Part shown: positions 12,847-27,146 of the stretch, piece after piece
Layout: each line of letters begins with the position of its first letter
Numbering within the stretch: position 1 is the first letter of the stretch
NCBI GenBank assembly: GCA_002841905.1
Contig: PHBF01000002.1
Location: 1-34,935 of the forward strand
From: Deltaproteobacteria bacterium HGW-Deltaproteobacteria-17
GTDB taxonomy: Bacteria; Myxococcota_A; Polyangia; HGW-17
Reading direction: 5' to 3'
Length of the DNA stretch: 34,935 nucleotides
The notes under the pieces: model-generated
Told to the model about the DNA's origin: nothing
Database searches by the model: none
What the model saw: the letters and a program-made list of their open reading frames with translations, nothing else
Made by a program: the position numbers and the translations under genes

Positions 12847-13038
12847 GGCGCCACCTCCGGAAAAAAGCATAGCCGAGTTCATGATCTAGTCAATACAATT
12901 GTGCGATCCATGCACGGGGGCGCAGATGGAACCTAACAGATGTTCAGTGGAGATCTCCTCCATTTTCATGATGGTGAAATTTTTCAATATTCCTGTAATT
13001 GCAGGTGTTTTTTGCCGATTTTTCTTTGGCTCGCCGGG

Positions 13039-13066
13039 TTGACACGCTCGGCAGAATTGATAAACA
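13039..13066 (+). promoter_or_regulatory. sigma70-like promoter candidate for the 13084 gene
   Basis: TTGACA (13039-13044), 16-nt spacer, TAAACA (13061-13066). Confidence 0.35.
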
Positions 13067-13083
13067 GCGGGCGTCTCGAGTGA

Positions 13084-13776
13084 ATGGAAATAACGCACAT
13101 TTCCATTATAACACCGACTGCGGTCGGAGAAAGCGTCGATGGTAGTAGTATGTCGTTTATGAGCAAGACTTGGAACCTGGAAACCAAAACCGAACACCTC
13201 ACGCATCTCGCCATGTCCGTAAAATTGGAGAGCGAGACGGCCCACCTCTACGCGCCGCTGAGCGACATCTTGACCACGGCCAACGAGGTCCTCACCGAGA
13301 GCAGGCGGCTGCGCCTGGCTCAACTCGAGGCCCTGGCCAGGGTCAACACCCTGGATCGCAAGCTGGACATCCAGGCGTCGAGCCTCTCCCACAGCGCCCG
13401 CCAGGCCGAGCGCCTCAATCCGGCTTTGCGCGTGCTGGGAAATCTGTTCCCTGACGGTGTCAGCACCGTGACCAAGCCCACGGGTCGAGGGGTCGGTACC
13501 CAGGTCCGGCTGCTCAACGGCGTCATCGTTTCCACCGACGGCATGCCCGAGGCGGCCGTCCTCGCCCCCGTCATCGCCGATCTGCGCACGACGCTGGCCG
13601 CCACCGAGACGGCGCTGGCCGAACTCAAGGCCATCGATGATCAGGTCGAAGCCAACGAACGCCTCAGCGACGACACCGCCGAACGCGTCTACAACGCCTA
13701 CTATGTGACCAAGGGCGAACTGATGAAGATCTACATCAACAACAAGCGCTTCATCAACTCGTTCTTCCTGAACTAG
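13084..13776 (+). CDS. hypothetical helical protein (start uncertain: 13084 or 13150)
   Basis: The plus-strand translation is protein-like and helix-rich (...LAELKAIDDQVEANERLSDDTAERVYNAYYVTKGELMKIYINNKRF). The longer antisense ORF 12886-13923 is R/G/D-rich junk. No family recognised. Confidence 0.6.
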   Translation: MEITHISIITPTAVGESVDGSSMSFMSKTWNLETKTEHLTHLAMSVKLESETAHLYAPLSDILTTANEVLTESRRLRLAQLEALARVNTLDRKLDIQASSLSHSARQAERLNPALRVLGNLFPDGVSTVTKPTGRGVGTQVRLLNGVIVSTDGMPEAAVLAPVIADLRTTLAATETALAELKAIDDQVEANERLSDDTAERVYNAYYVTKGELMKIYINNKRFINSFFLN

Positions 13777-13784
13777 TCCTCTCC

Positions 13785-14186
13785 CTTCGATATCTACTTC
13801 GGCTCTGCTCGCACGGGCTCGACGGACTTCGAATATCACTTCGGACCTGCTCGCACGAGTTCGACGAGCTTCGAATATCACTTCGGCACTGCTCGTACGG
13901 GTTCGACGAGCTTCGAATATCACTTCGGCACTGCTCGCACGGATTCGACGAGCTTCGAATAAGACTTCGGCACTGCTCGCACGAGTTCAGCGACTTTTGA
14001 ATATAACTTCAGACCTGCTCGCACGGGTTCAACGACTTTTGAATAGAACTTCGGCTCTGCTCGCACGAGTTCAGCGACTTTCGAATATAACTTAGGCCCA
14101 GCTCGCACGGGTTCGACGAGCTTCGACCAAAACTTTCAACTTGCTCGCACCGATTCAACGACTTTCAAATAAAACTTCGCCTAACG
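13785..14186. repeat. 42-bp tandem repeat array, ~9.6 units, with degeneracy increasing toward the 3' end
   Basis: Units start at 13785, 13827, 13869, 13911, 13953, 13995, 14037, 14079, 14121 and 14163. Consensus CTTCGAATATCACTTCGGCACTGCTCGCACGGGTTCGACGAG. Each unit carries a TTCGAA palindrome and a GCTCG..CGAGC dyad. There are no unique spacers. Confidence 0.95.
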
Positions 14187-14260
14187 TTTGAGCGGTCCAG
14201 GAGGTGTCACTTCACAAACGGCGGGATCTCACTGTAGAGGTCACGTTCCATGCACCCTTA

Positions 14261-14328: not shown

Positions 14329-14339
14329 TCAACAAAACG

Positions 14340-14800
14340 CCAAACGCCGAGTTCAACTGTCGCCTGTCCTCCCGGCCGGCATTTTGAAAAACTTTTTTCT
14401 ATTCGTTACACCCTGAAATATCCCAATAAATTCAACGCACTCCGCCTTGCCATATTCCAATACCACTGAAAGCGCAATATTTGCCCTGTTGACACTCACG
14501 AGTGTTTCCCCAATGCTGATTGCATTCCGTTTTTCCTCGTTCGGAGAGGTGCTCGTCCATGGCGACGTTGTTGACCTTCGAAAGCAGCAGATTCCGGCAA
14601 CCGGTTGTAGTGGGTTGCTGGCGAGGGAGCCTTTGCGGGGACGTACAGACAGGGGATGGCGCGATTTTTCAATCTGGATTGTCGATGACGTGGCACGCTC
14701 TTCGATTATCCGGTAAATCATTTCCGAATATTTTTATGCGGATGACGAAGACGAGTATTTTTTCTCACGGATCGGCAGAAACAAAAGTTTGCTTGAGAAA
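14340..14800 (+). repeat. conserved ~450-bp non-coding leader element, copy A (upstream of cassette 1)
   Basis: Aligns along its length with 16824-17266 and 19694-20146. It ends TTTCTCACGGATCGGCAGAAACAA about 27 nt before ATG 14821. Confidence 0.9.
14489..14517 (+). promoter_or_regulatory. promoter-like box inside leader copy A
   Basis: TTGACA, 17-nt spacer, AATGCT. The -35 hexamer is invariant in all three copies. Confidence 0.35.
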
Positions 14801-14820: not shown

Positions 14821-15036
14821 ATGGCATACTATGTTGGACTAACAGATGATCTAGAAACCAGAAAACAGCAACACGGCAACCCTTCAGACTGGTCCACGAC
14901 GGGGCCATTTTCGTCAGAGAAAGCCGCGCGCGACTGGGAGAAGGGGGAACTCGCAAAGGGGCATAAAGGTGGCCCTGGCGGCGCTGGTTGGCGCTACGGC
15001 TACTGGTACACAATTACCAGCACAACAATTGAATAG
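14821..15036 (+). CDS. small conserved-looking protein (71 aa); the N-terminus resembles the second half of a GIY-YIG motif
   Basis: SD AAGGAG upstream. MAYYVGLTDDLETRKQQHGNP... resembles YIG.T.DL..R...H. It is the first gene after leader copy A. Confidence 0.55.
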   Translation: MAYYVGLTDDLETRKQQHGNPSDWSTTGPFSSEKAARDWEKGELAKGHKGGPGGAGWRYGYWYTITSTTIE

Positions 15037-15129: not shown

Positions 15130-15798
15130 ATGGCCCGCACCAGTGATCGAGATGTATTTGTCAAACGCCTTGCAGAACTTTCCGGTGAAGACGGCAATTT
15201 CGTTAGTAACGAAGCGCTCAGAAAGAAGTTGAAGTGGGAGAAACAAAAGTACCGCACTGTTCACAGTGTCCTTCGTCAGGAAGAGTTAATTGTTGTAAAG
15301 AGAGGGAGGGGTGGGTTACTCGCTCTCGCGGCTAGCCAGCAATCCGACAAGCTCAAGTTGTTTGTGTCCTACAGTCACATCGACAAGGATCTCAAAGAGC
15401 GACTCATACGGCACCTGCAACCGCTCGAAAGAGAAAATCTCATTGAGGTTTGGGCGGATCATGAGATTCTTCCCGGAGACGATTGGGACAAAGAAATTTC
15501 AAAGAAGTTAGGTGAGGCAGACATTGTATTAACGCTCGTCAGTATTGACTTCATCAACTCGAAGTATTGCTATGACATAGAACTGATCAAGGCATTGGAG
15601 CGTGAAGCCGACGGTGAAGCGAAGGTAATCCCGGTTATCTTGCGGAGCTGCCTTTGGACAAAGTCCCCTCTTGGGCGACTCAAGGCGCTCCCTACTGACG
15701 GAAAGGCCGTTACCACTTGGCTAGATACGGACGATGCTTTAACCGTTGTCGCAAGTGGTATACGTGACTCTGCCATCGCCCTGCTTGAGAATGTCTAA
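15130..15798 (+). CDS. TIR-domain protein with an N-terminal ~70-aa (possibly winged-helix) domain
   Basis: TIR_2-type blocks LFVSYSHIDKD, WADHEILPGDDWDKEI, IVLTLVSIDFINSKYCYDIELIKAL (conserved Glu) and VIPVIL. Confidence 0.85.
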   Translation: MARTSDRDVFVKRLAELSGEDGNFVSNEALRKKLKWEKQKYRTVHSVLRQEELIVVKRGRGGLLALAASQQSDKLKLFVSYSHIDKDLKERLIRHLQPLERENLIEVWADHEILPGDDWDKEISKKLGEADIVLTLVSIDFINSKYCYDIELIKALEREADGEAKVIPVILRSCLWTKSPLGRLKALPTDGKAVTTWLDTDDALTVVASGIRDSAIALLENV

Positions 15799-15917
15799 GA
15801 AATCTATCCTGCGTTTCGAGGGGACCGCCGAGAAGCTGCGCTTCTCGGTTCCCTCCGCCCTACGGGCTTCGGCAGACCCTTCAACTGAACGGTGTGTACG
15901 ATGAGGAGAAGGTGACG

Positions 15918-16682
15918 ATGAAATTCATCCATACAGATCTTGGGCAACGAAAGGCTGGTGAGATAGTCGAGATCACCCTAACCAGCGGCGCCAATGTCCG
16001 TTTGATGGACAGTTCCAACTTCTCCAGTTACAAGAACGGGCGGAACCACCAGTACATCGGAGGATTGGCGCGACGGTCTCCCGTGAGGCTTCAGATACCG
16101 AGGAGTGGCCACTGGCACGTCGCAGTCGATATGCAGGGACTGCAGGGGAGCACGCGCGCATCCGTTCGTGTCTTACCCGGAGCTCTTCCCGACATTCGAG
16201 AGGTACCGCTATCTTCGGTGCCAGGTCTTGTCCGCGAAAACGTCCCGCCAGCAGTTGAAACCGGGGACCAAGCCTACGATGTGTTCATCTCTCACGCATC
16301 GGAAGACAAGGACGATATTGTGAGGTCGCTTGCTAATGCACTGAGCACCCAGAATTTGAAGGTATGGTACGACGAATTCACGTTGCGGATAGGAGACAGC
16401 CTCAGGCAGAAGATTGACAAAGGCCTGGCAACCAGCAGAGTCGGTCTCGTCGTCCTGTCTCCGGCGTTCATATCGAAGGGCTGGACGAACTACGAATTGG
16501 ATGGAATCGTGACGCGCTCAGTCTCGGGGGAGCAAATCCTTCTCCCGATATGGCACAACATTACGAAACAGCAAGTTATGGATTTTAGTCCATCTCTCGC
16601 CGACAAGGTTGCTAGAAGCACCGCAACTCACACCGTTGAAGAGATTGCTGAGGAGATCGCAGAGTTGATCCATGGGTGTTGA
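15918..16682 (+). CDS. DUF1883-TIR fusion protein
   Basis: Start MKFIHTDLGQRKAGEIVEITLTSGANVRLMDSSNFSSYKNG... (DUF1883-like) after GGAGAAGG. C-terminal TIR blocks YDVFISHASEDKD, VWYDEFTLRIGDSL and WTNYELDG (conserved Glu). Confidence 0.85.
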   Translation: MKFIHTDLGQRKAGEIVEITLTSGANVRLMDSSNFSSYKNGRNHQYIGGLARRSPVRLQIPRSGHWHVAVDMQGLQGSTRASVRVLPGALPDIREVPLSSVPGLVRENVPPAVETGDQAYDVFISHASEDKDDIVRSLANALSTQNLKVWYDEFTLRIGDSLRQKIDKGLATSRVGLVVLSPAFISKGWTNYELDGIVTRSVSGEQILLPIWHNITKQQVMDFSPSLADKVARSTATHTVEEIAEEIAELIHGC

Positions 16683-16823
16683 AAAAGAAGGCCGACAACC
16701 AGGCCTTGTCTACCTCATCAAGCGTGAGACGGAAATACTGCTCCATCCCCGATGAAGCAGGTGTACGCATCATCGGCCAGGGCCGTCGGCCCGGCCAAGT
16801 CGCCCAACTGGACTCCATACTCT

Positions 16824-17266
16824 GAGTCCAACTGCCGCTTGTACTTCCGGCCGGCATTTTGAAAAACTTTTTTCTATTCGTTACACCCGGAAATCCCCCA
16901 ATAATTTCAACGCACTCCGCTGTGCCATATTCCAATACCACTGAAAGCGCATTATTTGCTCTATTGACACCCTCTGCATTTCGCCCAATGCTGATGGCGT
17001 TCCGTTTTTCCTCGTTCGGTGAGGTGCTCGTCCATGGCGACGTTGGTGACCCTCGAAAGCAGCAGATTCCGGCAACCGGTTGTAGTTGGTTGGTGGCGGG
17101 GGGTCTTCTGCGGATCCGTACAAACGGGGCATGGCGAGACTTCTCAATCAGACTCTTCGAAGGCGTGGTACGCTATTCGATTTCGCTGTAAATCCTTTTC
17201 AAATCATTTTATGCGGACAACGGTGACTAAATATTCTTTCTCACGGATCCGCAGAAACAATGGTTA
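16824..17266 (+). repeat. conserved ~450-bp non-coding leader element, copy B (upstream of cassette 2)
   Basis: See copy A. It ends TTTCTCACGGATCCGCAGAAACAATGGTT 19 nt before ATG 17285. Confidence 0.9.
16964..16992 (+). promoter_or_regulatory. promoter-like box inside leader copy B
   Basis: TTGACA, 17-nt spacer, AATGCT. Confidence 0.35.
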
Positions 17267-17284: not shown

Positions 17285-18196
17285 ATGGCAGCCGACGACA
17301 AACCAACAAACTACTTCGTCCGATCCCTTATTGCACTCCTCTGCGTTCTCATCGCAGGTATGGTCCTGTTCCGGTTCCTACGAGTGGAGCCAATTGGAGA
17401 GATCACGAGCGGTCTGTTGGCTCTCCTCGGCCTGCTTGTCGTACTCGTGCTTTCGGAGTCATTCGACAACTTTTCGGTGGGAAAACTCTTCGCTATCTCC
17501 CGCGAGGTGCGTAAGAAGGAAGCTGAGATTGAGAAACTAGAAAAGCAAAACGCATCGCTACTCTCGCAATTGATCACGATCAGCAACTCGCAGTCCCAGA
17601 AGCAGAGCAGCACTACGGTTCAAGGCGACTACTACGCCACCGCCCCAGTAGTGCAGAAAGCGACTGAGGCAGAAGTGCAAGAGAAGCAGAACAACGAGAG
17701 CCGCGCCCTCGCTGCTACCGCAGCGGAAGCGCCCGCACCAGCTCGGATTGATTGGGCCCGGGCCGAAAGCATGGCGCTAGATAAGTTGCTCAAGCTTCGC
17801 AACATTCATCTGTCAAATGTCATTACGGAGGCAAAGTTATCGTTCCTCCAAGGTATTGATCCCATCAGCAATATCCAGCCTATCTTTGATGGCTACATCA
17901 AAGAGTCAGATGGCGAGACGTTTATCGACATGCGTCCAGAGCGGCTCCTGAGCCCTATGTATCGCGACCGTCTTTACGTCATGCTTTCCAAGATACACCA
18001 CTATCGGGCCACCAAGCAGATCAACGCGCACCTTGACGCTGTCATCCTGAAGATTCCCGGTGAGGAAGGCAGAGGCATTTGGGGCAACCCAGAGAGAGTT
18101 TTTCAGTTCTTCGAGCCTGCAATTGCCTCTGGCTTACTCAAAGTTCATGAGATAGAGCTCACCGAGGTCGAAGCTAACGAGTGTCGTCGCACGTGA
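17285..18196 (+). CDS. membrane protein: two N-terminal TM helices, a coiled-coil/low-complexity linker and an unknown C-terminal domain
   Basis: LIALLCVLIAGMVLFRFL and LLALLGLLVVLVL are the TM segments. KKEAEIEKLEKQNASLLSQL is the coiled coil. The C-terminal ~150 aa are globular with no motif I can name. Confidence 0.7.
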   Translation: MAADDKPTNYFVRSLIALLCVLIAGMVLFRFLRVEPIGEITSGLLALLGLLVVLVLSESFDNFSVGKLFAISREVRKKEAEIEKLEKQNASLLSQLITISNSQSQKQSSTTVQGDYYATAPVVQKATEAEVQEKQNNESRALAATAAEAPAPARIDWARAESMALDKLLKLRNIHLSNVITEAKLSFLQGIDPISNIQPIFDGYIKESDGETFIDMRPERLLSPMYRDRLYVMLSKIHHYRATKQINAHLDAVILKIPGEEGRGIWGNPERVFQFFEPAIASGLLKVHEIELTEVEANECRRT

Positions 18197-18307
18197 GTTC
18201 TAACTATTCGTTCAACCGGACGTGCGGGCCGCAGCGCGGTATCATCCAACGCCGCCGGCCGCACGCCGGTTAACTCAAGCGTTGGACATTGGTGAGGGAG
18301 GAATCAG

Positions 18308-18855
18308 TTGGATATCGCAAAGTTTTTCTTTGACTGGGTTCCCCCGCTTGGGATACTAGCAGGGGGGTTCTTCGCTCTATTCAAATGGTGGCATGATGAG
18401 CGCCTCCGATGTGCTCGGGAAATACCGTCACTAGATCAAGGAATCCTCAGAGTTACCGCGTTTTTGCTCTGGAGAGCTGGGTGCAATTGGATGCAACTTG
18501 GCGAAACCCAGGTAAGATCCCCTTCGACGTTGACACTGGTTCGACTCGAATTGACGTCTATCCTATACCGCCTGACCTACCGTTTGGCCCTCTTCAAGTA
18601 CGAAAGGAGAATTCATCTGATCTTGGGCAACCAACCTTTACGCTGTATCCGCTGGCCGGATTCAAGATCTTTCGGTTCGAGCCGGAGTCTGAGGGCATTC
18701 TACAAGGCCATTTTGTGTTGCCGCGAGAGCGCATCGTCCTCTTTCGCTTCAAGATCTTCCGTGCCAATGATGAAGGTCGCAAGCTCTCGCGCACCCGGTT
18801 TCTTGTATTCGACCCTCGCAATCTCGCTACTAGCATCTCAGACGAAGTCGCATGA
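18308..18855 (+). pseudogene. frameshifted gene (or sequencing error or programmed shift): an N-terminal TM segment in one frame and a beta-rich domain in another
   Basis: TTG 18308 follows a strong SD GAGGGAGGAA and encodes LDIAKFFFDWVPPLGILAGGFFALFKWW. From about 18400 the protein-like frame is that of ORF 18409-18855 (..FKIFRFEPESEGILQGHFVLPRERIVLFRFKIFRANDEG..), which has no SD of its own. Confidence 0.45.
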
Positions 18856-18960
18856 TGGTTTTCCGACGTACGATGCCCAACCCATTGCCGGTCCCCTCCG
18901 GCGTTCTGGTTCCGGCGACCTAAAAACTCAAACGGTTGGGCGAATGCCAAAGGAATAACT

Positions 18961-19464
18961 ATGAAGCCAAATCCGAAACTCGATGTTCTCAGATCACAAC
19001 TTGCGGAGCAACTGAATTCTTTTCAGAGGAAGCGGGGGCAGAATAAGAAGAAGGCCTTTCTTGTGTACCTTGGGGCAACGGCAATCAGTGCCGTGGTCAC
19101 AGTACTTCTCGGTCTTCAGGGCATACCAGATGACAAGGTTGTGTACATTCGAAATATCGCATTGATACTGAGTGCCACGGTGACACTTCTGACTGGTTTT
19201 GATACATTTTTCAACCATCGTGCACTTTGGGTTCGGTACACACAAACTGCCACCCTGCTTCTGGGTCTTCAGGCGAAACTGGATTACCTCTCGGCGGATG
19301 AGGGGCGAGAGATACCAGAGAGTGAAGTTGATCAACTCTTTGAGGAGATGCAGCGAGTACTTACAGAAACAAATAGGTGGTGGCAAAACCAGCGGGCTGA
19401 GGAGCCGGATGGACCGAAGCCGCCCAACCCGCCCATGCATCCGACCGGCACTGCTAGCGGCTGA
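18961..19464 (+). CDS. SLATT-domain (DUF4231-like) two-TM protein
   Basis: SD AAGGAA upstream. Two TM helices (AFLVYLGATAISAVVTVLLGL and IALILSATVTLLTGF) are followed by FFNHRALWVRYTQTATLLLGLQAKLDYL, the characteristic SLATT layout. Confidence 0.7.
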   Translation: MKPNPKLDVLRSQLAEQLNSFQRKRGQNKKKAFLVYLGATAISAVVTVLLGLQGIPDDKVVYIRNIALILSATVTLLTGFDTFFNHRALWVRYTQTATLLLGLQAKLDYLSADEGREIPESEVDQLFEEMQRVLTETNRWWQNQRAEEPDGPKPPNPPMHPTGTASG

Positions 19465-19693
19465 TGGGCAAGACGTTTTGTATCCAAGAGGCTGAGCGTT
19501 AGATGAGGATCACACCCGATGTATTCGTTAGAGACGGAGGCCCGGCCACTATTGAAAAGGAGTCTTTTGTCCAGGCCTTGGAGAATCGAAATGGAGCGAA
19601 TGTCTGGTTCCACACACAATTGGCGAAACACCTAGCTAGGTCTTTCAACCAGCCCGTTTCATGAGCGGGCAAGGCCAATTAATTAGCCTATTC

Positions 19694-20146
19694 CAAACGC
19701 CGAGTTCAACTGTCGCCTGTCCTCCCGGCCAGCATTTTGAAAAACTTTTTTCTATTCATTACACCCGGAAATCCCCCAATAATTTCAACGCACTCCGCTG
19801 TGCCAGATTCCAATACCACTGAAAGCGCATTATTTGCTCCATTGACACCCTCTGCATTTCGCCCAATTCTGATGGCGTTCCGTTTTTCCTCGTTCGGTGA
19901 GGTGCTCGTCCATGGCGACGTTGATGACCTTCGAAAGCATCAGACTCCGGCAACCGGATATTGTGGGTTGCCGGCGAGGTGACTTCTGCGGATGTGGACA
20001 CCCGGGGGATGGCGGTATTTCTCAATCTGGATTGTCGAAGACATGTAATACTCTTCGAATTTCCTGTAAATCATTTACAGATAATTTAATACGGACGACC
20101 GTGACGAAGTATCCTTTCTCACGGATCAGCAGAAACAATGGTTGGG
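19694..20146 (+). repeat. conserved ~450-bp non-coding leader element, copy C (upstream of cassette 3)
   Basis: See copy A. It ends TTTCTCACGGATCAGCAGAAACAATGGTT about 28 nt before ATG 20174. Confidence 0.9.
19842..19870 (+). promoter_or_regulatory. promoter-like box inside leader copy C
   Basis: TTGACA, 17-nt spacer, AATTCT. Confidence 0.35.
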
Positions 20147-20173: not shown

Positions 20174-20464
20174 ATGAAGATCCGAAACATCAACGGAACT
20201 GCTGACACTACGTGCAAGTGCGGCACTTGGCTGAAGCACTGGGAGAAATTCAGTGGTCTAACCAAACCGACCTACTGCCCTGTAGACAACTGTACTAAGA
20301 CGGATCTTGTCGGGGCACACGTTCAGAAAGGTGGTGGGAGTACCGATCAGAAATGGTACATCTATCCGCTTTGCAATGCCCACAACCAGCACACGGGAGA
20401 ACTCGATGTGCCCGACTTCTATAGACTGGTTTCCGCGAATAAGAAGGAAACTTGCGAGAAGTAG
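20174..20464 (+). CDS. small Cys/His-rich zinc-binding protein (HNH/His-Me-finger-like pattern)
   Basis: SD AAGGAG upstream. MKIRNINGTADTTCKCGTWLKHW...CPVDNC...VGAHVQ...IYPLCNAHNQH. Confidence 0.65.
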   Translation: MKIRNINGTADTTCKCGTWLKHWEKFSGLTKPTYCPVDNCTKTDLVGAHVQKGGGSTDQKWYIYPLCNAHNQHTGELDVPDFYRLVSANKKETCEK

Positions 20465-20596
20465 CTGAGCAGAACCAATCGGTCCAACTGATGCTGCTCC
20501 CCGCCCTGCCCTTAGGTTGCTCTGGGGCACAGCACAGTTGAATGTGTCGTTTGTTGAACAAGAGCACGGCCGTGATGCAACCATGGGAGAGTAGCC

Positions 20597-21004
20597 GTGG
20601 AGAACAAGCGAGCCCACCTGGAGATGATCCAGGCCATCGTCAACCGGATGTCGGTCAACTCGTTCCTGCTGAAGGGATGGTCCGTCGTCCTTATCTCAGC
20701 GCTCTTCGCACTGGCCGCCAGTGATTCCCAAGCGCTCTTTGTCTATCTTGCTTATTTTCCTGCAATCGCCTTCTGGGTACTGGATGGGTACTTCCTCTGG
20801 CAGGAGCGGCTGTTCCGCGGGCTATACGACCGCGTTCGGGCAATGGCGGAGTCAGAGGTGGATTTCGCCATGGACACCTCTGGGGTTCGCGGTGACGACG
20901 GTGGCTGGTTCGCCGTCATCTTTTCCAAGACTCTCGTGATCTTCCACGGGACGGTCTTCGGCTCGATTGTTATCGTCATGTTCGTCATCGTTCTCACAAA
21001 CTGA
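20597..21004 (+). CDS. small multi-pass membrane protein (3-4 TM), unknown family
   Basis: GTG start after GGGAGAG. TM segments WSVVLISALFALAA, LFVYLAYFPAIAFWVLDGYF and TVFGSIVIVMFVIVL. Confidence 0.65.
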   Translation: MENKRAHLEMIQAIVNRMSVNSFLLKGWSVVLISALFALAASDSQALFVYLAYFPAIAFWVLDGYFLWQERLFRGLYDRVRAMAESEVDFAMDTSGVRGDDGGWFAVIFSKTLVIFHGTVFGSIVIVMFVIVLTN

Positions 21005-21017
21005 TAGGTGGTTCACA

Positions 21018-21464
21018 ATGGCTCGACGCGTTTTCTTCAGTTTTCACTATCAACGCGACATCTGGCGCGTTAATCAGATCCGGAACATTCCCAACGTAAC
21101 AGGTTGCGCCGCCGCAGGCTTCCAGGACGGGTCGCTCTGGGAAGAGGCCAAGAAGAAAGGCGATGCAGCGATCAAAGCCCTCATCGACGAGGGCTTGAAG
21201 AACACTTCAGTCACGGTCGTATGCGTCGGTAGCAAGACGGCTGGACGGAAGTACATCAACTACGAGATCGACCAGTCGATCGCGCGGGGGAACGGAATCG
21301 TCGCGGTGCAGATCCATCACTTGAAGGACAAGGACGGCAACACCGATCCGGCAGGTGCAATCCCCGCAAAGATCGAGGCAAACGGCTACAAGGCGTACAA
21401 GTACGTGGACCACGAGAAGCTCGGCAATTGGATTGAAGCCGCCGCGAAGGCCGCCGGCAAGTGA
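21018..21464 (+). CDS. TIR-like protein, DUF1863 / Thoeris ThsB type (copy 1)
   Basis: MARRVFFSFHYQRDIWRVNQIRN... followed by VTVVCVGSKTAGRKYINYEI. SD AGGTGG upstream. Confidence 0.8.
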   Translation: MARRVFFSFHYQRDIWRVNQIRNIPNVTGCAAAGFQDGSLWEEAKKKGDAAIKALIDEGLKNTSVTVVCVGSKTAGRKYINYEIDQSIARGNGIVAVQIHHLKDKDGNTDPAGAIPAKIEANGYKAYKYVDHEKLGNWIEAAAKAAGK

Positions 21465-21531
21465 AGCCTGCTAACAACAGCATACAGCGGACGGTACTTC
21501 GCGCCGCCGCTGAACTGGAGCGCTAAGTAGA

Positions 21532-22212
21532 ATGGCAGACTCAACGACTGAGAACTTACTTGCCCGATATGAGGGCAATAGATTCGTTCGCGGATTAGTG
21601 CAGCTCATCCCGTTTGGTATCGGCGGTGCGATTGATGTCATCGTTCTAAAGACCCTGAACAATATCAGAGAAGAGCGTTCTCGCGTTTTCTTCGATGAAC
21701 TGGCCAACACATCAACGCCGCTTGATCCAACAATGTTGGAGTCCGAGGATTTCCTCCATTGTTACTTCTCAACCGCTCGATATGCACTGAATTCGAGGCG
21801 GCGAGAGAAAATTCAAATGTTCGCACGGCTGTTGAAGGCATCATTGGGCGAAATGGGACCGCGAGAAGTTGATGAGTACGAGGAGCTATTGAAAATACTT
21901 GACGATTTGTCGTTTCGAGAACTTGAAGCTCTCACCATCATGGATTCATTTTCAAACAGCCCTAGAATGTCTGGTCAGAACGATCTCCAATGGACAGATA
22001 CATTTTGGAAAGAATTTGAAGATCGAATTGTTTCCGATCTCGGGGTTCCAAGAGATGAGGTGTCTGATTTTATGAATCGAATCTCGCGAACGGCGTGCTA
22101 CGAGATGTTCACTGGCGGATATCACGACTATACCGGAGGAAAGGGCAAACTAACTCCGACTTATAGGCGATTAAAGCGATTTATTAGCAATGAGGTAGGA
22201 AATGCTATCTAG
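21532..22212 (+). CDS. hypothetical protein (226 aa) with a short N-terminal hydrophobic segment
   Basis: Protein-like composition (LVQLIPFGIGGAIDVIVL, then a helical region). No motif recognised. Weak SD. Confidence 0.6.
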   Translation: MADSTTENLLARYEGNRFVRGLVQLIPFGIGGAIDVIVLKTLNNIREERSRVFFDELANTSTPLDPTMLESEDFLHCYFSTARYALNSRRREKIQMFARLLKASLGEMGPREVDEYEELLKILDDLSFRELEALTIMDSFSNSPRMSGQNDLQWTDTFWKEFEDRIVSDLGVPRDEVSDFMNRISRTACYEMFTGGYHDYTGGKGKLTPTYRRLKRFISNEVGNAI

Positions 22213-22521
22213 CTTTACGCTCCCGAGTGACGCTACGCCTGCTAACTGGCTTCGCGTCCCAGAGTGGGCACGTTTGAAATTATTAGGAGGCGATCATGCC
22301 AAGAAAGTCATGGAAAACGTTGGACAATGCCTTTGTCGAGTTTTTCAGAAGTGCAGAGGTTAGAGACCATGACTGCATGTTCCATTGTAACCGATGAGGT
22401 TTGGACTTTGTACGCACGCAGGAGCAGCCATGAACGCAGAATGCAAGAGCCAATTTATAGAAATAATTGCGCGTGTGTGTGAAGGCACCGAGTAGCACAG
22501 ACTTCCCTTTGAGGAAGAATA

Positions 22522-23112
22522 ATGGCGAAACGAGTATTCTTCAGTTTCCACTACCAGGATGTGATCGATTTCCGAGCAAACGTCGTCCGGAATCACTGGG
22601 TGACGAAAGAGAGTCGTGACATTGCAGGCTTCTTTGACGCATCGCTATGGGAGAGCGCAAAGAAAGACAGCCCTCTTTCGGTCAAGCGCCTGATCAATTC
22701 GGGGCTGGAAAGGACCTCCACAACTTGCGTCCTCATCGGAACGAATACCTGGGCGCGTCCATGGGTTCGCTATGAGATCGTAGCTAGTTTCCGGCGTGAG
22801 AACCGGATGTTGGGTGTCCACATCAATTCGATCGCTGGCAAGGACCAGCGAACCAAGGCACTTGGCGTAAACCCATTCGAGTATCTCGGTGTGCGGTTTT
22901 TTAACTCTGGACTGACGGCAACGCTCTATGAGGTTGTTGGGTCTAAGTGGATAGAATACACTGAATATGGGCCGAGCGCGACGTATCAGACCGGGGGCGT
23001 TGGTTGCGAACACTGTGGCAAGTTCTATAAATTTTCTGACCTTTACAACATATTCGACTGGGGAAGGGGCGATGGATATAATAATTTCGCGTCTTGGGTC
23101 GAGAACGCCTAG
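22522..23112 (+). CDS. TIR-like protein, DUF1863 / ThsB type (copy 2) with a C-terminal extension
   Basis: MAKRVFFSFHYQDVIDFRANVVRN... followed by TTCVLIGTNTWARPWVRYEI. SD GAGGAAG upstream. Confidence 0.8.
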   Translation: MAKRVFFSFHYQDVIDFRANVVRNHWVTKESRDIAGFFDASLWESAKKDSPLSVKRLINSGLERTSTTCVLIGTNTWARPWVRYEIVASFRRENRMLGVHINSIAGKDQRTKALGVNPFEYLGVRFFNSGLTATLYEVVGSKWIEYTEYGPSATYQTGGVGCEHCGKFYKFSDLYNIFDWGRGDGYNNFASWVENA

Positions 23113-23153
23113 GATAATGTTTGGCAACAACCGTAGAAATTCATGGGTGTAAT

Positions 23154-23540
23154 ATGAACAAACAAGTTTTTTTGAGCTACGTCTTTGAGGATATTGCGTA
23201 TCGAGATCAAATAGTCGACTGGTACCGAAAGGGACTCTTAGGAAAGTGGGTCCCCGTATTTGAGAAAGAGGATGTACGACAGGGTGGTGATGCTGCTATC
23301 CGAGGACACTTACGTCCGATCTTGAGAGACGCTGATGCCGTTCTTGTTCTTGTCGGGCAGGACACTCACAATCGCCGTTGGGTTAACGAGGAGGTGCATT
23401 TTCTTGCAACGTCTGGCAAGGCTATACTGTGGACTCGAATTCCGAATTCAACTGGCGGAGCGCCCCCGGAGTTGCGCTCCAAAGCCGTTGTCCAGTTTTC
23501 TCCAGAGGAGATTCGTCAGGCTCTCGACTCAGCACGATGA
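23154..23540 (+). CDS. divergent TIR-like protein (copy 3)
   Basis: MNKQVFLSYVFEDIAYRDQI... followed by AVLVLVGQDTHNRRWVNEEV. The block order matches the two ThsB-like genes. Confidence 0.65.
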   Translation: MNKQVFLSYVFEDIAYRDQIVDWYRKGLLGKWVPVFEKEDVRQGGDAAIRGHLRPILRDADAVLVLVGQDTHNRRWVNEEVHFLATSGKAILWTRIPNSTGGAPPELRSKAVVQFSPEEIRQALDSAR

Positions 23541-23572
23541 ATTTGGACTTATAATTTGCGTGAGGAGGAATT

Positions 23573-24178
23573 ATGGCACAACACACTGCTAAATCACTGT
23601 TCGATCTCAACATCGTTGGGGCAAAAGAGAGCATCGCCCTCTACGAGGGTCTAGACAAGATTAGGGTTGGAGCAGACATTACATGGCTTTTGCGTGCGTC
23701 GATTGTATTCTCGGTTTCGGCGATGGATGCTTACTTCCACGACAAAGTCCGATATCGTATGGCGCAGTTCAATGTGGCAAACCTCCCAGATGCACTCCGC
23801 AATTTACAAATCAAGATGGGCGATTTGGCTGTATGGGAATCTCACAAGCGCAAGGGCAATGCCATTCGAAATATAGTGGTGGAAAGAATGGCTTTTAAAT
23901 CTTTACAGGGAATGAATCAAATTGCGGATGCCATGCGTCTCTGTGGAGAAGAAGGGTTCTGGGGGAAGGTGTATCCAGACAAGACAATTAGGGAACAAGT
24001 GCTCATTGAACTCAAGGAGTACGGCGACCGGCGCAATGATATCGTCCATGAGGGCGACAGATTATCGGCGCGCAACAGTGGAAAAGTGTTGCGTGACATA
24101 GATTTAACCTTCGCACAGGATTGTTGTCGCTTTGTAGAGAATTTGGTTACTGCTGTTGAGCAGGCGTTTGCATGGTAG
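23573..24178 (+). CDS. HEPN-domain protein (RiboL-PSP/MAE_28990-like), predicted RNase
   Basis: SD GAGGAGG upstream. Rx4H motif RNDIVH (24032-24049) in ...EYGDRRNDIVHEGD... All-helical composition. Confidence 0.65.
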   Translation: MAQHTAKSLFDLNIVGAKESIALYEGLDKIRVGADITWLLRASIVFSVSAMDAYFHDKVRYRMAQFNVANLPDALRNLQIKMGDLAVWESHKRKGNAIRNIVVERMAFKSLQGMNQIADAMRLCGEEGFWGKVYPDKTIREQVLIELKEYGDRRNDIVHEGDRLSARNSGKVLRDIDLTFAQDCCRFVENLVTAVEQAFAW

Positions 24179-24392
24179 GGCTTCACAAATTAAAAGCATT
24201 TCAACCAGTCGACCATGGGAAATACTGGATAATAAGGATTGTGTACAGCAAGCAATTAGGATGGCGTTCGAGAAATGCGACCTAATTTTTAACGTTATAG
24301 TGTTTCCCCCAAAAAATTCTCATTGACAATTCCGCCCTGCCATGGTGACCATTTACGCTGAGTCCGGCAGTGTCACCGGTCGAAAGGATGCC

Positions 24393-24941
24393 ATGCACGA
24401 AGGTTCGGATGCGGCAACCCAGGTCGAGGCGTTCATCGAGCGGTGGCAGGCGGCGGGGGGCACCGAGCGGTCCAACTTCCAGATGTTCTTCACGGAGTTG
24501 TGCTTGGTGCTGGGGCTGCCCACACCCGATCCGGCCTCCGAGATAACCCGGTACAATGTCTTTGGATTCGAAAGTGCCATGGAATCCGAAGGCCTGATTA
24601 GCTACCTTCGTCCGGAATACCAGAACCCTGCTTCGGCCACCGCGCCCACCCGCCATACCGAAAAGCTGGATCTGCCCCCCGAAGAAATCGAAACCCCTGA
24701 ATCCGCACCACCGACCCGCGCCGCTGCGTTACCATGGCCCAAGGATCCCGCTTCTCAGGCCAAAGCCCTTGCGGATCTTCTCGTCTCCTCCCCCACACCA
24801 CTCAACATCGACTCCATCGCCTCCTCCTTCACCAGCCGCGGCAAATGGAAAGCCCGTTTGCAACCGTTGCTCGAATGCTGGTGTTGTTGGGCAGGGCAAG
24901 GGAGAGTGGCGGGAAGTATTATGGAGTGTAGTAATGAGTGA
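24393..24941 (+). pseudogene. remnant of a large class-I SAM-dependent DNA methyltransferase (type IIG/IIL or BREX-PglX-like): internal deletion plus a frameshift
   Basis: The N-terminal block QVEAFIERWQAAGGTERSNFQMFFTELCLVLGLPTPDP is joined directly to the C-terminal blocks LISYLRPEYQNP ... LPWPKDPASQAKALADLL ... SRGKWKARLQPLLE. The expected end MLVLLGRARESGGKYYGV lies in another frame, consistent with a 1-nt loss in GAA(A)TG. Confidence 0.7.
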
Positions 24942-25839
24942 ATTAGAAGTTTCTATGAACAGAATGAAAGAAATAGCAGAAAAGTTGAAAAATTCTTTTC
25001 AAATACAAGATAAATTAATCAGAGAGAAAATGCTTCCATTTTTTGAAGCCCAAAAAGTAATGGAGAAATATATTGAACCAATAAAAGTTGTAAATGAAAA
25101 TTCAAAAAAAATTATGCAAACAATAAATAGTCTAAAGAAGATGTATGAACTGAATGAAAAAGAGTTGATTAGAATAAGTTCATTCACAGAGTATAATAAA
25201 AAGTATATTGATATTGCTCTGCAAAGCTATTATCAAATGGAAAAGAGCTTTTTAGAGCTTCCCCAGAAAACTAGAGAAGTATTGCTTTTACTAGGAAAAC
25301 AAGGCTGGTATTTGGATATTAATATTGCAATGTCATCTCTTTGGGAGCTTAGAGACGCACTAGTAGATGGTGATTTTGAAAATGCTCAGAATGATTTAAT
25401 CGAGTATTTTGATAAATACACAATTGAAATTCAAACCTCTTTGGTTAACAAATTCCCCACGCGTGCACATATTTTCCAAGCTGCTTTTCAGGCGCATCAA
25501 GCAGGACAATACTATTTATCAATTCCGGTACTGCTAGCACAGACTGATGGCATATGTAAAGATATTTTCAGTGGCTATTTTTTCATAAAGAAAAACAAGA
25601 AGCCTCAGACTTCAAATTATGTTGAGCAAATTGATGTTGATTCATTTTTGTCTGCACTATTAAGTCCCCTTTCAGAAATTTTGCCAATAAACGCTTCTTT
25701 GGGTGAGAGAGATGACAGTGAAAAACCTTTTAATCGACATCTTATTTTGCATGGGGATTCTCTCGATTATGGCAACAAAGTCAATAGCCTTAAGGCGATA
25801 TCCCTTTTAAATTATGTTGCTCACGTCATTGATTATTAA
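24934..25839 (+). CDS. hypothetical AT-rich gene, possible HEPN/Abi-like protein
   Basis: 301 aa and strongly AT-rich compared with its surroundings. Contains an Rx4H-type motif NRHLILHG near the C-terminus. It starts 2 nt after the pseudogene's original stop. Confidence 0.65.
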   Translation: MSELEVSMNRMKEIAEKLKNSFQIQDKLIREKMLPFFEAQKVMEKYIEPIKVVNENSKKIMQTINSLKKMYELNEKELIRISSFTEYNKKYIDIALQSYYQMEKSFLELPQKTREVLLLLGKQGWYLDINIAMSSLWELRDALVDGDFENAQNDLIEYFDKYTIEIQTSLVNKFPTRAHIFQAAFQAHQAGQYYLSIPVLLAQTDGICKDIFSGYFFIKKNKKPQTSNYVEQIDVDSFLSALLSPLSEILPINASLGERDDSEKPFNRHLILHGDSLDYGNKVNSLKAISLLNYVAHVIDY

Positions 25840-26135
25840 CGTAAAAATTATCTATAGAACTAAGCAAAATGCTTCATTTGAAACAATATATACCAAGCCC
25901 ATGTTTCACAAATCTGGATTCATCTACTTCGAAAACACTAGGCGAAATGGCGACAAGGGCGTTGATTGCGACGAGTTGGCGCGCAAGCTCAAGGAGCTGG
26001 GCCTAGGCGTGAAAACGGAGTTGATCGAACAGGTGAGCGTGGACCCGTCGTGGTTCCAGGGGCTGTGAGAGTGACACCATGAGACAGAAGAGAACTGATG
26101 CAGCAACTTTTCCCCAATTCGGAGGGAACTGAAGC

Positions 26136-27146
26136 ATGACCGACCTCATCCTCTACACCACCGCCGATGGTCGCAGCCAGATCCAGCTGCGAGCGAAACA
26201 TCACACCGTCTGGCTGACCCAGAAGGAGATGTCGCAACTCTTTGATGTAAGCACCGACAACGTGGGGTTGCATCTGAAGAATATCTTCGAGGACGGGGAA
26301 TTGAGCCGGGAGTCGACTACCGAGGAATCCTCGGTAGTTCAAATCGAAGGCGGGCGCGAGGTTCGGCGCCCGGTCACGCTCTACAACCTCGAAGCCATTT
26401 TAGCTGTGGGCTACCGGGTGCGCTCGCCGCGTGGGGTGCAGTTCCGCCGCTGGGCTTCCACTGTCCTCAAGGAATACCTCGTGAAGGGCTTCGCGATGGA
26501 CGACGAGCGGCTGAAGAATCCGGATGGCCGCCCGGATTACTTCGACGAAATGCTGGCGCGGATCCGCGACATCCGTGCCTCGGAAAAGCGCTTTTATCAG
26601 AAAGTGCGCGACCTCTTTGCCCTCTGCGTCGACTACGACAAGACCGACGCAGCCACCCATACGTTCTTTGCCACCGTGCAGAACCAACTCCTTTATGCCG
26701 TGACCCAGAAGACGGCGGCCGAGCTGATCACCGCGCGGGCCAATCCCGCCGATGCGCATTTCGGGCTGTCCACCTGGAAAGGCAACAAAGTGCACAAGAC
26801 GGATATTGTCGTGGCCAAGAATTATCTGACCGAGGACGAGATCGACACCCTGAATCGGCTGGTGGTCATCTTCCTCGAAACCGCCGAACTGCGCGCCAAG
26901 AACCGGCAGGAGACGCGGATGGGGTTTTGGAAGCAGAACGTGGATCAGATCATCACCTCTAATGGTTTTTCGCTGCTCACCCACGCCGGTTCCGTCAGTC
27001 ATGAACAGATGGAGGCGCACACGAGTGAACTGTACCTCCAGTTCGACCAGCAGCGCAAAACACGGGATGCGCTGGAAGCCGACGGGCAGGACGAAGTGGA
27101 CCTCAAAGAACTCGAAAATACCATCAAAGGACGCCCCCTCCCATGA
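26136..27146 (+). CDS. rhuM: RhuM family virulence/filamentation-like protein
   Basis: MTDLILYTTADGRSQIQLRAKHHTVWLTQKEMSQLFDVSTDNVGLHLKNIF..LEAILAVGYRVRSPRGVQFRRWAS..LKEYLVKGF is the canonical RhuM N-terminus. SD GGAGGG upstream. Confidence 0.9.
   Translation: MTDLILYTTADGRSQIQLRAKHHTVWLTQKEMSQLFDVSTDNVGLHLKNIFEDGELSRESTTEESSVVQIEGGREVRRPVTLYNLEAILAVGYRVRSPRGVQFRRWASTVLKEYLVKGFAMDDERLKNPDGRPDYFDEMLARIRDIRASEKRFYQKVRDLFALCVDYDKTDAATHTFFATVQNQLLYAVTQKTAAELITARANPADAHFGLSTWKGNKVHKTDIVVAKNYLTEDEIDTLNRLVVIFLETAELRAKNRQETRMGFWKQNVDQIITSNGFSLLTHAGSVSHEQMEAHTSELYLQFDQQRKTRDALEADGQDEVDLKELENTIKGRPLP

Follow-up and report, generated by a model that had tools for sequence, protein, structure and literature searches.

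A probable type V Thoeris module with additional ThsB genes in a defence island of Deltaproteobacteria bacterium HGW-Deltaproteobacteria-17

A recent preprint lists 29 configurations in which a TIR is combined with an effector, and it validates 11 types, V-XI among them (Yirmiya et al., bioRxiv 10.64898/2025.12.03.692087, Dec 2025). In type V Thoeris, the described system closest to the locus presented here, ThsB is combined with ThsF, a protein with three transmembrane (TM) segments that is annotated as DUF2270 (bioRxiv 10.64898/2025.12.03.692087). Here we analyse a cassette of seven genes, g1 to g7, at positions 20,174 to 24,178 of a 34,935-nucleotide (nt) stretch of DNA from Deltaproteobacteria bacterium HGW-Deltaproteobacteria-17 (contig PHBF01000002.1 of GCA_002841905.1); this whole stretch is called the window below. 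Judged from sequence relationships, the adjacent genes g2 and g3 are likely to be a type V Thoeris system, i.e. a system of an already described kind.

The type V system of Bacillus thuringiensis protects B. subtilis. Its TIR produces the cyclic ADP-ribose isomer 3'cADPR upon infection, the addition of 3'cADPR is toxic only when the system is present, and the Tad1 sponge blocks the defence. In AlphaFold3, ThsF is predicted as a ring with positively charged pockets between the protomers. The phage-induced signal, the toxicity and the protection are known only for B. thuringiensis DAR 81934 and Bacillus sp. 1NLA3E. Types I and V both use 3'cADPR, and there are TIR clusters common to both types (all from bioRxiv 10.64898/2025.12.03.692087).

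The cassette is part of an island of about 50% GC that extends from 10 to 29 kb of the window, whereas the flanks have 64-70% GC. The seven open reading frames (ORFs) of the initial annotation, a note made from the DNA letters without database searches, are all present on the + strand, and the same seven genes are called in the deposited record GCA_017973855.1 (contig JAEMOG010000800.1):

g1: 20174..20464, + strand, 96 residues, Cys/His-rich protein, best regarded as a neighbour outside the Thoeris module
g2: 20597..21004, + strand, 135 residues, three-TM protein, predicted type V effector, ThsF-like (PADLOC model PDC-M50A)
g3: 21018..21464, + strand, 148 residues, ThsB-type TIR, proposed cognate sensor/signal synthase of g2
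g4: 21532..22212, + strand, 226 residues, all-alpha protein, probably a neighbour or insertion
g5: 22522..23112, + strand, 196 residues, second ThsB, close to B. cereus ThsB, probable extra sensor
g6: 23154..23540, + strand, 128 residues, third ThsB, its clade being that of the last ThsB of multi-ThsB operons
g7: 23573..24178, + strand, 201 residues, RiboL-PSP-type HEPN protein, best regarded as an independent defence-island gene

The start of g3 lies 13 nt behind the stop of g2, the gap between g4 and g5 measures 309 nt, and that between g6 and g7 32 nt. The initial annotation described g3, g5 and g6 as three mutually divergent ThsB-like genes with a common start motif, and this agrees with our results. 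The three proteins begin with MARRVFFSF, MAKRVFFSF and MNKQVFLSY, respectively, all of them match PF08937 (E-values of 1e-24, 1.5e-18 and 6e-13), and their pairwise identities are 44%, 27% and 24%. In the alignment, the column of the catalytic E85 of B. cereus ThsB holds a Glu in g3, g5 and g6 as well as in all the reference ThsBs. The multi-TM protein proposed for g2 has three hydrophobic segments (at about residues 24-44, 46-64 and 107-133); in fact, the protein is almost wholly made up of an N-terminal helix and these three segments. No relatives of g2 were found among the PDB sequences.

In the PADLOC search that had been suggested for the cassette, g2 matches the model PDC-M50A (E 4.6e-53), and g3 matches both ThsB (7e-58) and PDC-M50B (1.1e-48). 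In other words, the two component hidden Markov models of PDC-M50, a candidate system of PADLOC-DB v2, match the adjacent genes g2 and g3. PDC-M50B also matches g5 (E 2e-52), and g2 matches phrog_19896 (E 3e-40). A literature search for PDC-M50 found no paper that mentions it.

The relatives of g2 were collected using one genome per species, and they occur in 225 genomes from many bacterial phyla and from archaea. Locus counts were taken from the best 80 of these genomes' loci, 76 of which are assessable, i.e. all but 4 that are cut off at the TM gene. In 55 of the 80 loci the TM gene is accompanied on its own strand by a ThsB-type TIR gene whose start lies -53 to +110 nt from the TM stop codon, mostly within about 20 nt. 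Ten further loci were inspected; in eight, the next gene downstream encodes a TIR of another clade (TIR_2, ThsB_TIR or CAP12-PCTIR_TIR), and a SLOG protein is present in one. This makes at least 63 of the 76 assessable loci in which a TIR gene immediately follows the TM gene. The TM gene is constant and the clade of the adjacent TIR varies, which is the pattern expected of a constant effector with exchangeable sensors.

The TM-TIR pair is also found on plasmids, namely those of Klebsiella, Priestia, Terribacillus, Desulforapulum, the archaeon Halorhabdus and Streptomyces, the Streptomyces example having a HIT-domain gene added to the pair. Several loci have two TIR genes with the TM gene (L037, L042, L063, L073, L085, L095 and the Priestia plasmid; L numbers denote the loci of this collection). 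Moreover, positions 20549-21513 of the window are 87.8% identical at the nucleotide level to L017, a locus in a metagenome-assembled genome (MAG) of Planctomycetota. Besides g2 and g3, the shared block includes only 48 nt before g2 and 49 nt after g3, and the neighbours of the pair in L017, a TIR_2 protein and a SLOG protein, differ from those in the window. This alignment indicates that g2-g3 has been transferred between phyla as a module of about 1 kb.

Three loci of the collection show the g2 family in other company. In L107 (7175-9058; also L108-L110) the N-terminal approximately 130 residues of a 627-residue adenosine-deaminase-domain protein are homologous to g2 (36% identity, E 4e-19), and the operon of this gene further encodes four TIRs and a SLOG (LD_cluster3) protein; fusions of the ThsF-like TM module to an enzymatic domain therefore exist as well. 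L099 (Streptomyces sp. NBC_00724 plasmid NZ_CP108986.1) combines a g2-family TM gene, a HIT-domain gene (the effector class of type XI) and a 510-residue TIR protein, possibly as a two-effector Thoeris. In L071 (5084-6770; Gemmatimonadota MAG JBQTID010000246.1) a protein 69% identical to the DUF1883-TIR protein encoded at 15894-16682 of the window lies directly upstream of a ThsF-like TM gene that is followed by a ThsB, so this TIR clade, found upstream of our cassette, can also partner the g2 family.

The link from the pair to type V is provided by the TIR partners. On a Klebsiella plasmid, the TIR WP_020803592.1 is accompanied by a single co-oriented neighbour, which is a homologue of g2 (33% identity, E 2e-21), and the sequence of this TIR appears in Table S1 of Yirmiya et al. 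as 'DUF2270 - Type V'. The same table also gives as type V some ThsB-type TIRs that are very close to g3 and g5 (RRVFFSFHYQRDIWRVN..., C-terminal ...DGYNNFSKWVED). Moreover, the TIRs of Priestia and Terribacillus show 47-49% identity to the type V ThsB that was validated from B. thuringiensis, and the TM proteins flanked by these TIRs are 44-46% identical to g2. A further match to the type V ThsB, on a B. cereus plasmid, was discarded, as its SIR2 context is uninformative on ThsF. Three features of type V are also found in the window, namely a co-oriented TIR adjoining the effector gene, a catalytic Glu in the TIR, and a small three-TM effector, with an indirect link to the ThsF family.

The initial annotation considered the cassette to be a Thoeris-like TIR signalling system that lacks ThsA, with a small multi-TM protein among its candidate effectors, and this part of the proposal is consistent with the conserved TM-TIR pair and its connection to type V. 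The suggestion that the type is undescribed is not borne out, since the TM-ThsB pair is PADLOC's PDC-M50 and corresponds to type V of Yirmiya et al. To regard all seven genes as one single novel system is an over-interpretation; the conserved unit is g2 plus g3. The region as a whole is best described as a patch of a defence island that probably has a type V Thoeris core.

Several points weigh against this interpretation. g2 has no match to PF10028 (DUF2270) at E <= 1 in the Pfam scan, and 2 of 32 members of the g2 family match this profile weakly, with a best E of 0.027; the equation of g2 with ThsF is thus based on Table S1 and on the shared TIR partners, not on a direct profile match. In this respect the effector of the Klebsiella system that Table S1 lists as type V is no different, as it has no PF10028 match either, and the DUF2270 label appears to be a remote-homology annotation of cluster representatives. 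Second, one validated type V system is not triggered by 3'cADPR (bioRxiv 10.64898/2025.12.03.692087), which makes the signal at the window locus uncertain. Third, g4 and the 309-nt gap part g5-g6 from g2-g3, so that g5 and g6 may be orphans rather than working sensors. Finally, the co-orientation and the short gaps of g1-g7 leave room for co-transcription and some functional coupling of the whole cassette.

The roles within the pair could in principle be reversed, i.e. the TIR would be an effector that depletes NAD+ and the TM protein its sensor or anchor. Such a possibility was raised by Yirmiya et al. for unverified configurations, and the fusion of a g2-like TM domain to an adenosine deaminase in L107 indicates that the TM module can accompany an enzymatic effector. 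However, type V has been verified to make 3'cADPR, which is toxic on addition only together with the system, and it is the TM gene that is constant while the TIR clade varies (ThsB_TIR, TIR_2, CAP12-PCTIR). We consider the reversed roles very improbable.

If g2-g3 is a type V system, its mode of action can be outlined by analogy to the validated type V and type I systems, from which the following steps are inferred. Phage infection would be sensed by a ThsB, and the TIR with its catalytic Glu would turn NAD+ into a cyclic ADP-ribose isomer, most likely 3'cADPR, given the similarity of g5 to B. cereus ThsB and the type V data. The nucleotide would then be bound in the inter-protomer pockets of an oligomeric ThsF ring in the membrane, the membrane would be breached, and the infected cell would die or stop growing before phage release. 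g5 and g6 would probably extend the set of phages that are detected and act through the same effector, g2.

The initial annotation noted the absence of SLOG, Macro and SIR2 motifs, and the profile searches support this: SIR2, SLOG and Macro domains have no Pfam, NCBIfam or PADLOC match in the cassette or its neighbours. When two ThsA and two SLOG proteins were compared with the whole window by tblastn, only noise was obtained (E >= 0.09). The candidate for a cryptic ThsA was g4, which was rejected, as it has no match in Pfam, NCBIfam, PADLOC or PHROGs, nor in a profile search of the PDB sequences. The AlphaFold2 model of g4, with a predicted local distance difference test (pLDDT) score of 82, is almost entirely alpha-helical, which cannot be reconciled with SIR2, SLOG and Macro domains, all of which have alpha/beta folds. 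The Foldseek comparison that had been proposed for this protein gave no match in PDB or BFVD. According to this model, g4 is not a cryptic SLOG, Macro or SIR2 protein.

Between them, the two extra TIR genes have relatives in type I as well as in TM loci. g5 is 68% identical to the TIR domain of the ThsB of B. cereus MSX-D12, a type I sensor. TIRs with 52-58% identity to g5 are found immediately behind the TM gene in L041, separated from it by one gene in L037 and L085, and at a distance of about 2.3 kb on its downstream side in L080. Myxococcus xanthus and a metagenome have operons of the form ThsB-ThsA(SIR2_2+STALD)-ThsB-ThsB that end with a g6 homologue (63-65% identity), and the ThsB preceding this homologue is 51-53% identical to g3; g6 homologues at 55% identity occur in an operon of four TIRs and a SLOG protein. 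Judging by these relatives, g3, g5 and g6 all belong to clades that work as ThsBs, often with several per operon. The most economical reading is a three-sensor type V system in which g5 and g6 are probably extra ThsBs.

The same comparison suggests a different origin of these genes: g5 and g6 might be orphan remnants of a type I/III operon that has lost its effector (SIR2-SLOG or SLOG), and they would then be either non-functional or stand-alone NADases that send no signal to g2. It is conspicuous that the order g3-g4-g5-g6 mirrors the order ThsB-ThsA-ThsB-ThsB, with g4 in the place of ThsA, that the closest homologues of g6 are in operons of exactly this order with a g3-like middle ThsB, and that g4 and the 309-nt gap separate g5-g6 from g2-g3. 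On the other hand, the ORFs of g5 and g6 are intact and have kept the catalytic Glu, a remnant of ThsA or SLOG is not detectable in the window, and g5-like TIRs are direct partners of the TM gene elsewhere, e.g. in L041. As types I and V both use 3'cADPR and have TIR clusters in common, a surviving ThsB could still feed ThsF. An orphan state of g5 and g6 is thus a serious but rather unlikely alternative to a three-sensor type V system.

The remaining genes of the cassette, g1, g4 and g7, have no homologues in any of the 80 loci carrying the TM gene. The initial annotation included the 226-residue, HEPN and Zn-finger genes as parts of the system; in homologous loci they are not linked to TIR genes, an observation that the annotation itself named as speaking against its proposal.

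g1 is Cys/His-rich, as described initially (the conserved residues are C14, C16, H22, C35, C40, C67 and C94), whereas its 'HNH-like' pattern was not confirmed. The Pfam matches are at the level of motifs and below threshold, i.e. RecA_dep_nuc (E 0.13; 3 of 45 members) and a TT_ORF2-like CxCx5H motif (32 of 45 members). The family comprises 1126 representative clusters, nearly all of which are stand-alone proteins of about 95-130 residues. There is no sequence match in PDB, and the single-sequence model (pLDDT 37) was unusable. Relatives on a plasmid and in a phage show no TIR annotation at the match; the plasmid neighbours are without TIR, and the phage record is unannotated.

g4 has a single hydrophobic segment (residues 21-40), in agreement with the N-terminal segment pointed out initially, and belongs to a well conserved family with at least 261 homologues. 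These are solo genes: in Thiobacillus the gene is flanked by those for a Mur ligase and a LysR protein, others are found beside an integrase or among housekeeping genes, and one is inside a molybdenum-cofactor operon on a Moraxella plasmid. No TIR is nearby in the homologue loci that were inspected.

The proposal that g7 is a HEPN protein with an RNDIVH motif could be substantiated. The protein matches PF18735 (RiboL-PSP-type HEPN) with 38.6 bits at a cut-off of 28.4, and the motif, R154-x4-H159, is invariant in 15 relatives. The HEPN domain spans residues 32-198 of 201, so g7 consists of little else and leaves no space for a nucleotide sensor. None of the 21 loci of its relatives (27-70% identity) has an adjoining TIR; the neighbours are hsdS/GmrSD/hsdR of type I restriction-modification (R-M) systems, AAA_13 ATPases, an SNF2-GIY-YIG protein, an HD phosphohydrolase and an AAA ATPase. 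On the 3' side of g7, a 199-residue ORF (24342-24941) is an N-terminal fragment of an MmeI-like type IIG R-M enzyme (restriction endonuclease/methyltransferase; PADLOC E 3e-23), which matches the usual R-M company of the g7 family.

Based on these distributions, g1, g4 and g7 are best regarded as independent, coincidental neighbours of the Thoeris module. The alternative is that all seven genes are one new multi-effector Thoeris-like operon in which the TIRs signal to the membrane protein, the 226-residue protein and the HEPN RNase, with the Zn-finger protein acting as a regulator or nuclease. The genes do share a strand and have short gaps, and a promoter and terminator scan of the cassette revealed no convincing intrinsic terminators between them (the same scan gave 3 promoter-like sites vs 4.3 expected by chance and sets no operon boundaries). 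Moreover, two-effector Thoeris operons exist, such as ThsH + ThsI and the TM + HIT + TIR arrangement of the Streptomyces plasmid. However, g1, g4 and g7 recur neither in the 80 TM-gene loci nor beside g6 homologues, their own homologues have no TIR neighbours in the loci inspected, g7 as a bare HEPN domain cannot accommodate a nucleotide sensor, g4 is all-alpha and neither SLOG nor Macro, and the block shared with L017 at the nucleotide level stops at the ends of g2-g3. A seven-gene operon of this kind is most improbable.

A smaller unit was also considered, in which g6 and g7 are a separate two-gene TIR-HEPN system, i.e. a new Thoeris type with an RNase effector. The two genes are on the same strand and 32 nt apart, one promoter-like site (23054-23082) lies just upstream of g6, and RNase is among the predicted Thoeris effector classes (bioRxiv 10.64898/2025.12.03.692087). 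This has to be weighed against the absence of TIRs from the 21 loci of g7 relatives and of HEPN genes from next to the g6 relatives in the g6-homologue loci inspected. In addition, the promoter scan is not above chance, the R-M remnant after g7 represents the usual context of the g7 family, and the word HEPN is not in the text of Yirmiya et al. or in those of its tables that were searched. There is little reason to expect that g6 and g7 are such a pair, and g7 is more easily understood as an independent defence-island gene.

The island around the type V module contains another feature, a noncoding direct repeat:

Repeat: about 445 nt, three direct copies, 14339-14789, 16814-17265 and 19692-20143 (third copy + strand), noncoding

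The copies are 85-91% identical with essentially no indels, and each of them ends 20-60 nt before the first gene of a cassette, the third about 30 nt before g1. All three copies contain an identical 24-nt core, TTTCTCACGGATCNGCAGAAACAA, which is absent from the rest of the window. Codon periodicity (36/29/25) and an RNA-folding signal (z = 0.48) are both lacking in the repeat, Rfam gives no match to it, and neither two exact-word scans of metagenomes and viral contigs nor a blastn search of plasmids found it elsewhere. It may be a shared promoter/leader or a cassette boundary. One could go further and propose that the repeats mark an undescribed cassette-array mechanism that assembles and co-regulates TIR sensors with unrelated effectors (ThsF, a SLATT/DUF4231 protein, the 226-residue protein and the HEPN RNase), which would mean that the HEPN and 226-residue proteins respond here to TIR-made nucleotides, unlike their relatives elsewhere. 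We regard this as a long shot. Nevertheless, the three repeats are the residual novelty of the region, outside the Thoeris finding.

The cassettes behind the first two copies differ in content. Cassette 1 (15130-15798, 15894-16682) encodes a TIR_2 protein and the DUF1883-TIR protein already mentioned (PADLOC ThsB and PDC-S66 models) and has no effector; cassette 2 (17285-19464) encodes a 303-residue TM protein and a 167-residue DUF4231/SLATT-like protein with two TM segments and has no TIR. Together they resemble a Thoeris with a SLATT effector (type VII-like) that is split by the second repeat copy. The island has five TIR genes within 9 kb. Directly after the first repeat copy, at 14821-15036, a 71-residue ORF begins with MAYYVGLTDDLETRKQQH; by eye, this is a GIY-YIG-like N-terminal motif, but there is no Pfam match at E <= 0.01. 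Just upstream of the same copy, at 13754-14221, a 42-nt unit is repeated in tandem about 11 times; its copies are 66-86% identical to a reference copy, and the array overlaps the end of a minus-strand ORF (12886-13923) without Pfam match.

Further out, the minus-strand segment 10080-12882 (41% GC) encodes a 576-residue AAA_15/AAA_21 ATPase (like GajA, AriA and PDC-M07A) beside a 333-residue Exo_endo_phos_3 nuclease/phosphatase, and the two are probably another two-gene defence module. On the other side of the cassette, the stretch 25000-26000 has 34% GC and a 269-residue ORF without a family match, and a RhuM-family gene follows at 26136-27146. The type IIG fragment, the low-GC stretch and the RhuM gene together suggest an R-M gene disrupted by an insertion.

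The practical value of the analysis is a correct annotation, i.e. of a probable type V Thoeris (PDC-M50) with supernumerary ThsBs in a TIR-rich island of an uncultured high-GC bacterium. ThsB clades of types I/III stand here beside a ThsF-type effector, which supports the free exchange of TIR sensors and effectors. Two further modest additions are the unit of about 1 kb, g2-g3, that moves between phyla, and the ThsF-like module fused to adenosine deaminase.

The locus can finally be compared with the known systems it touches upon. The RiboL-PSP HEPN proteins of R-M/ATPase loci share with g7 the profile match, the Rx4H motif and the adjacent R-M material, whereas the TIR 32 nt upstream of g7 makes a pairing that is seen in no related locus. 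Type II Thoeris has an effector with N-terminal TM helices and a Macro domain, in contrast to the window, where there is no Macro match and g2 has only 135 residues. The likeness to type I is closer: in addition to the 68% identity of g5 to the TIR domain of the B. cereus MSX-D12 ThsB, the probable signal 3'cADPR is common to both, and ThsBs like g3 and g6 occur in the multi-ThsB type I operons of Myxococcus xanthus; the difference is that no ThsA, SIR2 or SLOG domain was found in the 35-kb window. With PDC-M50 the locus shares the A model on g2 and the B model on g3 and g5, although PDC-M50 is a computational candidate without a recorded function. From type V it differs in three respects: g2 gives no significant match to PF10028, the validated systems are from Bacillus and have another TIR clade, and the window has three ThsB genes, two of which are cut off from the effector by an unrelated gene. 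What it has in common with type V is the two-gene module of a TIR and a small three-TM protein with no SIR2, SLOG or Macro domain, the homology of this TM protein to partners of TIRs that the authors themselves call type V, and a broad phyletic spread that includes archaea and plasmids.

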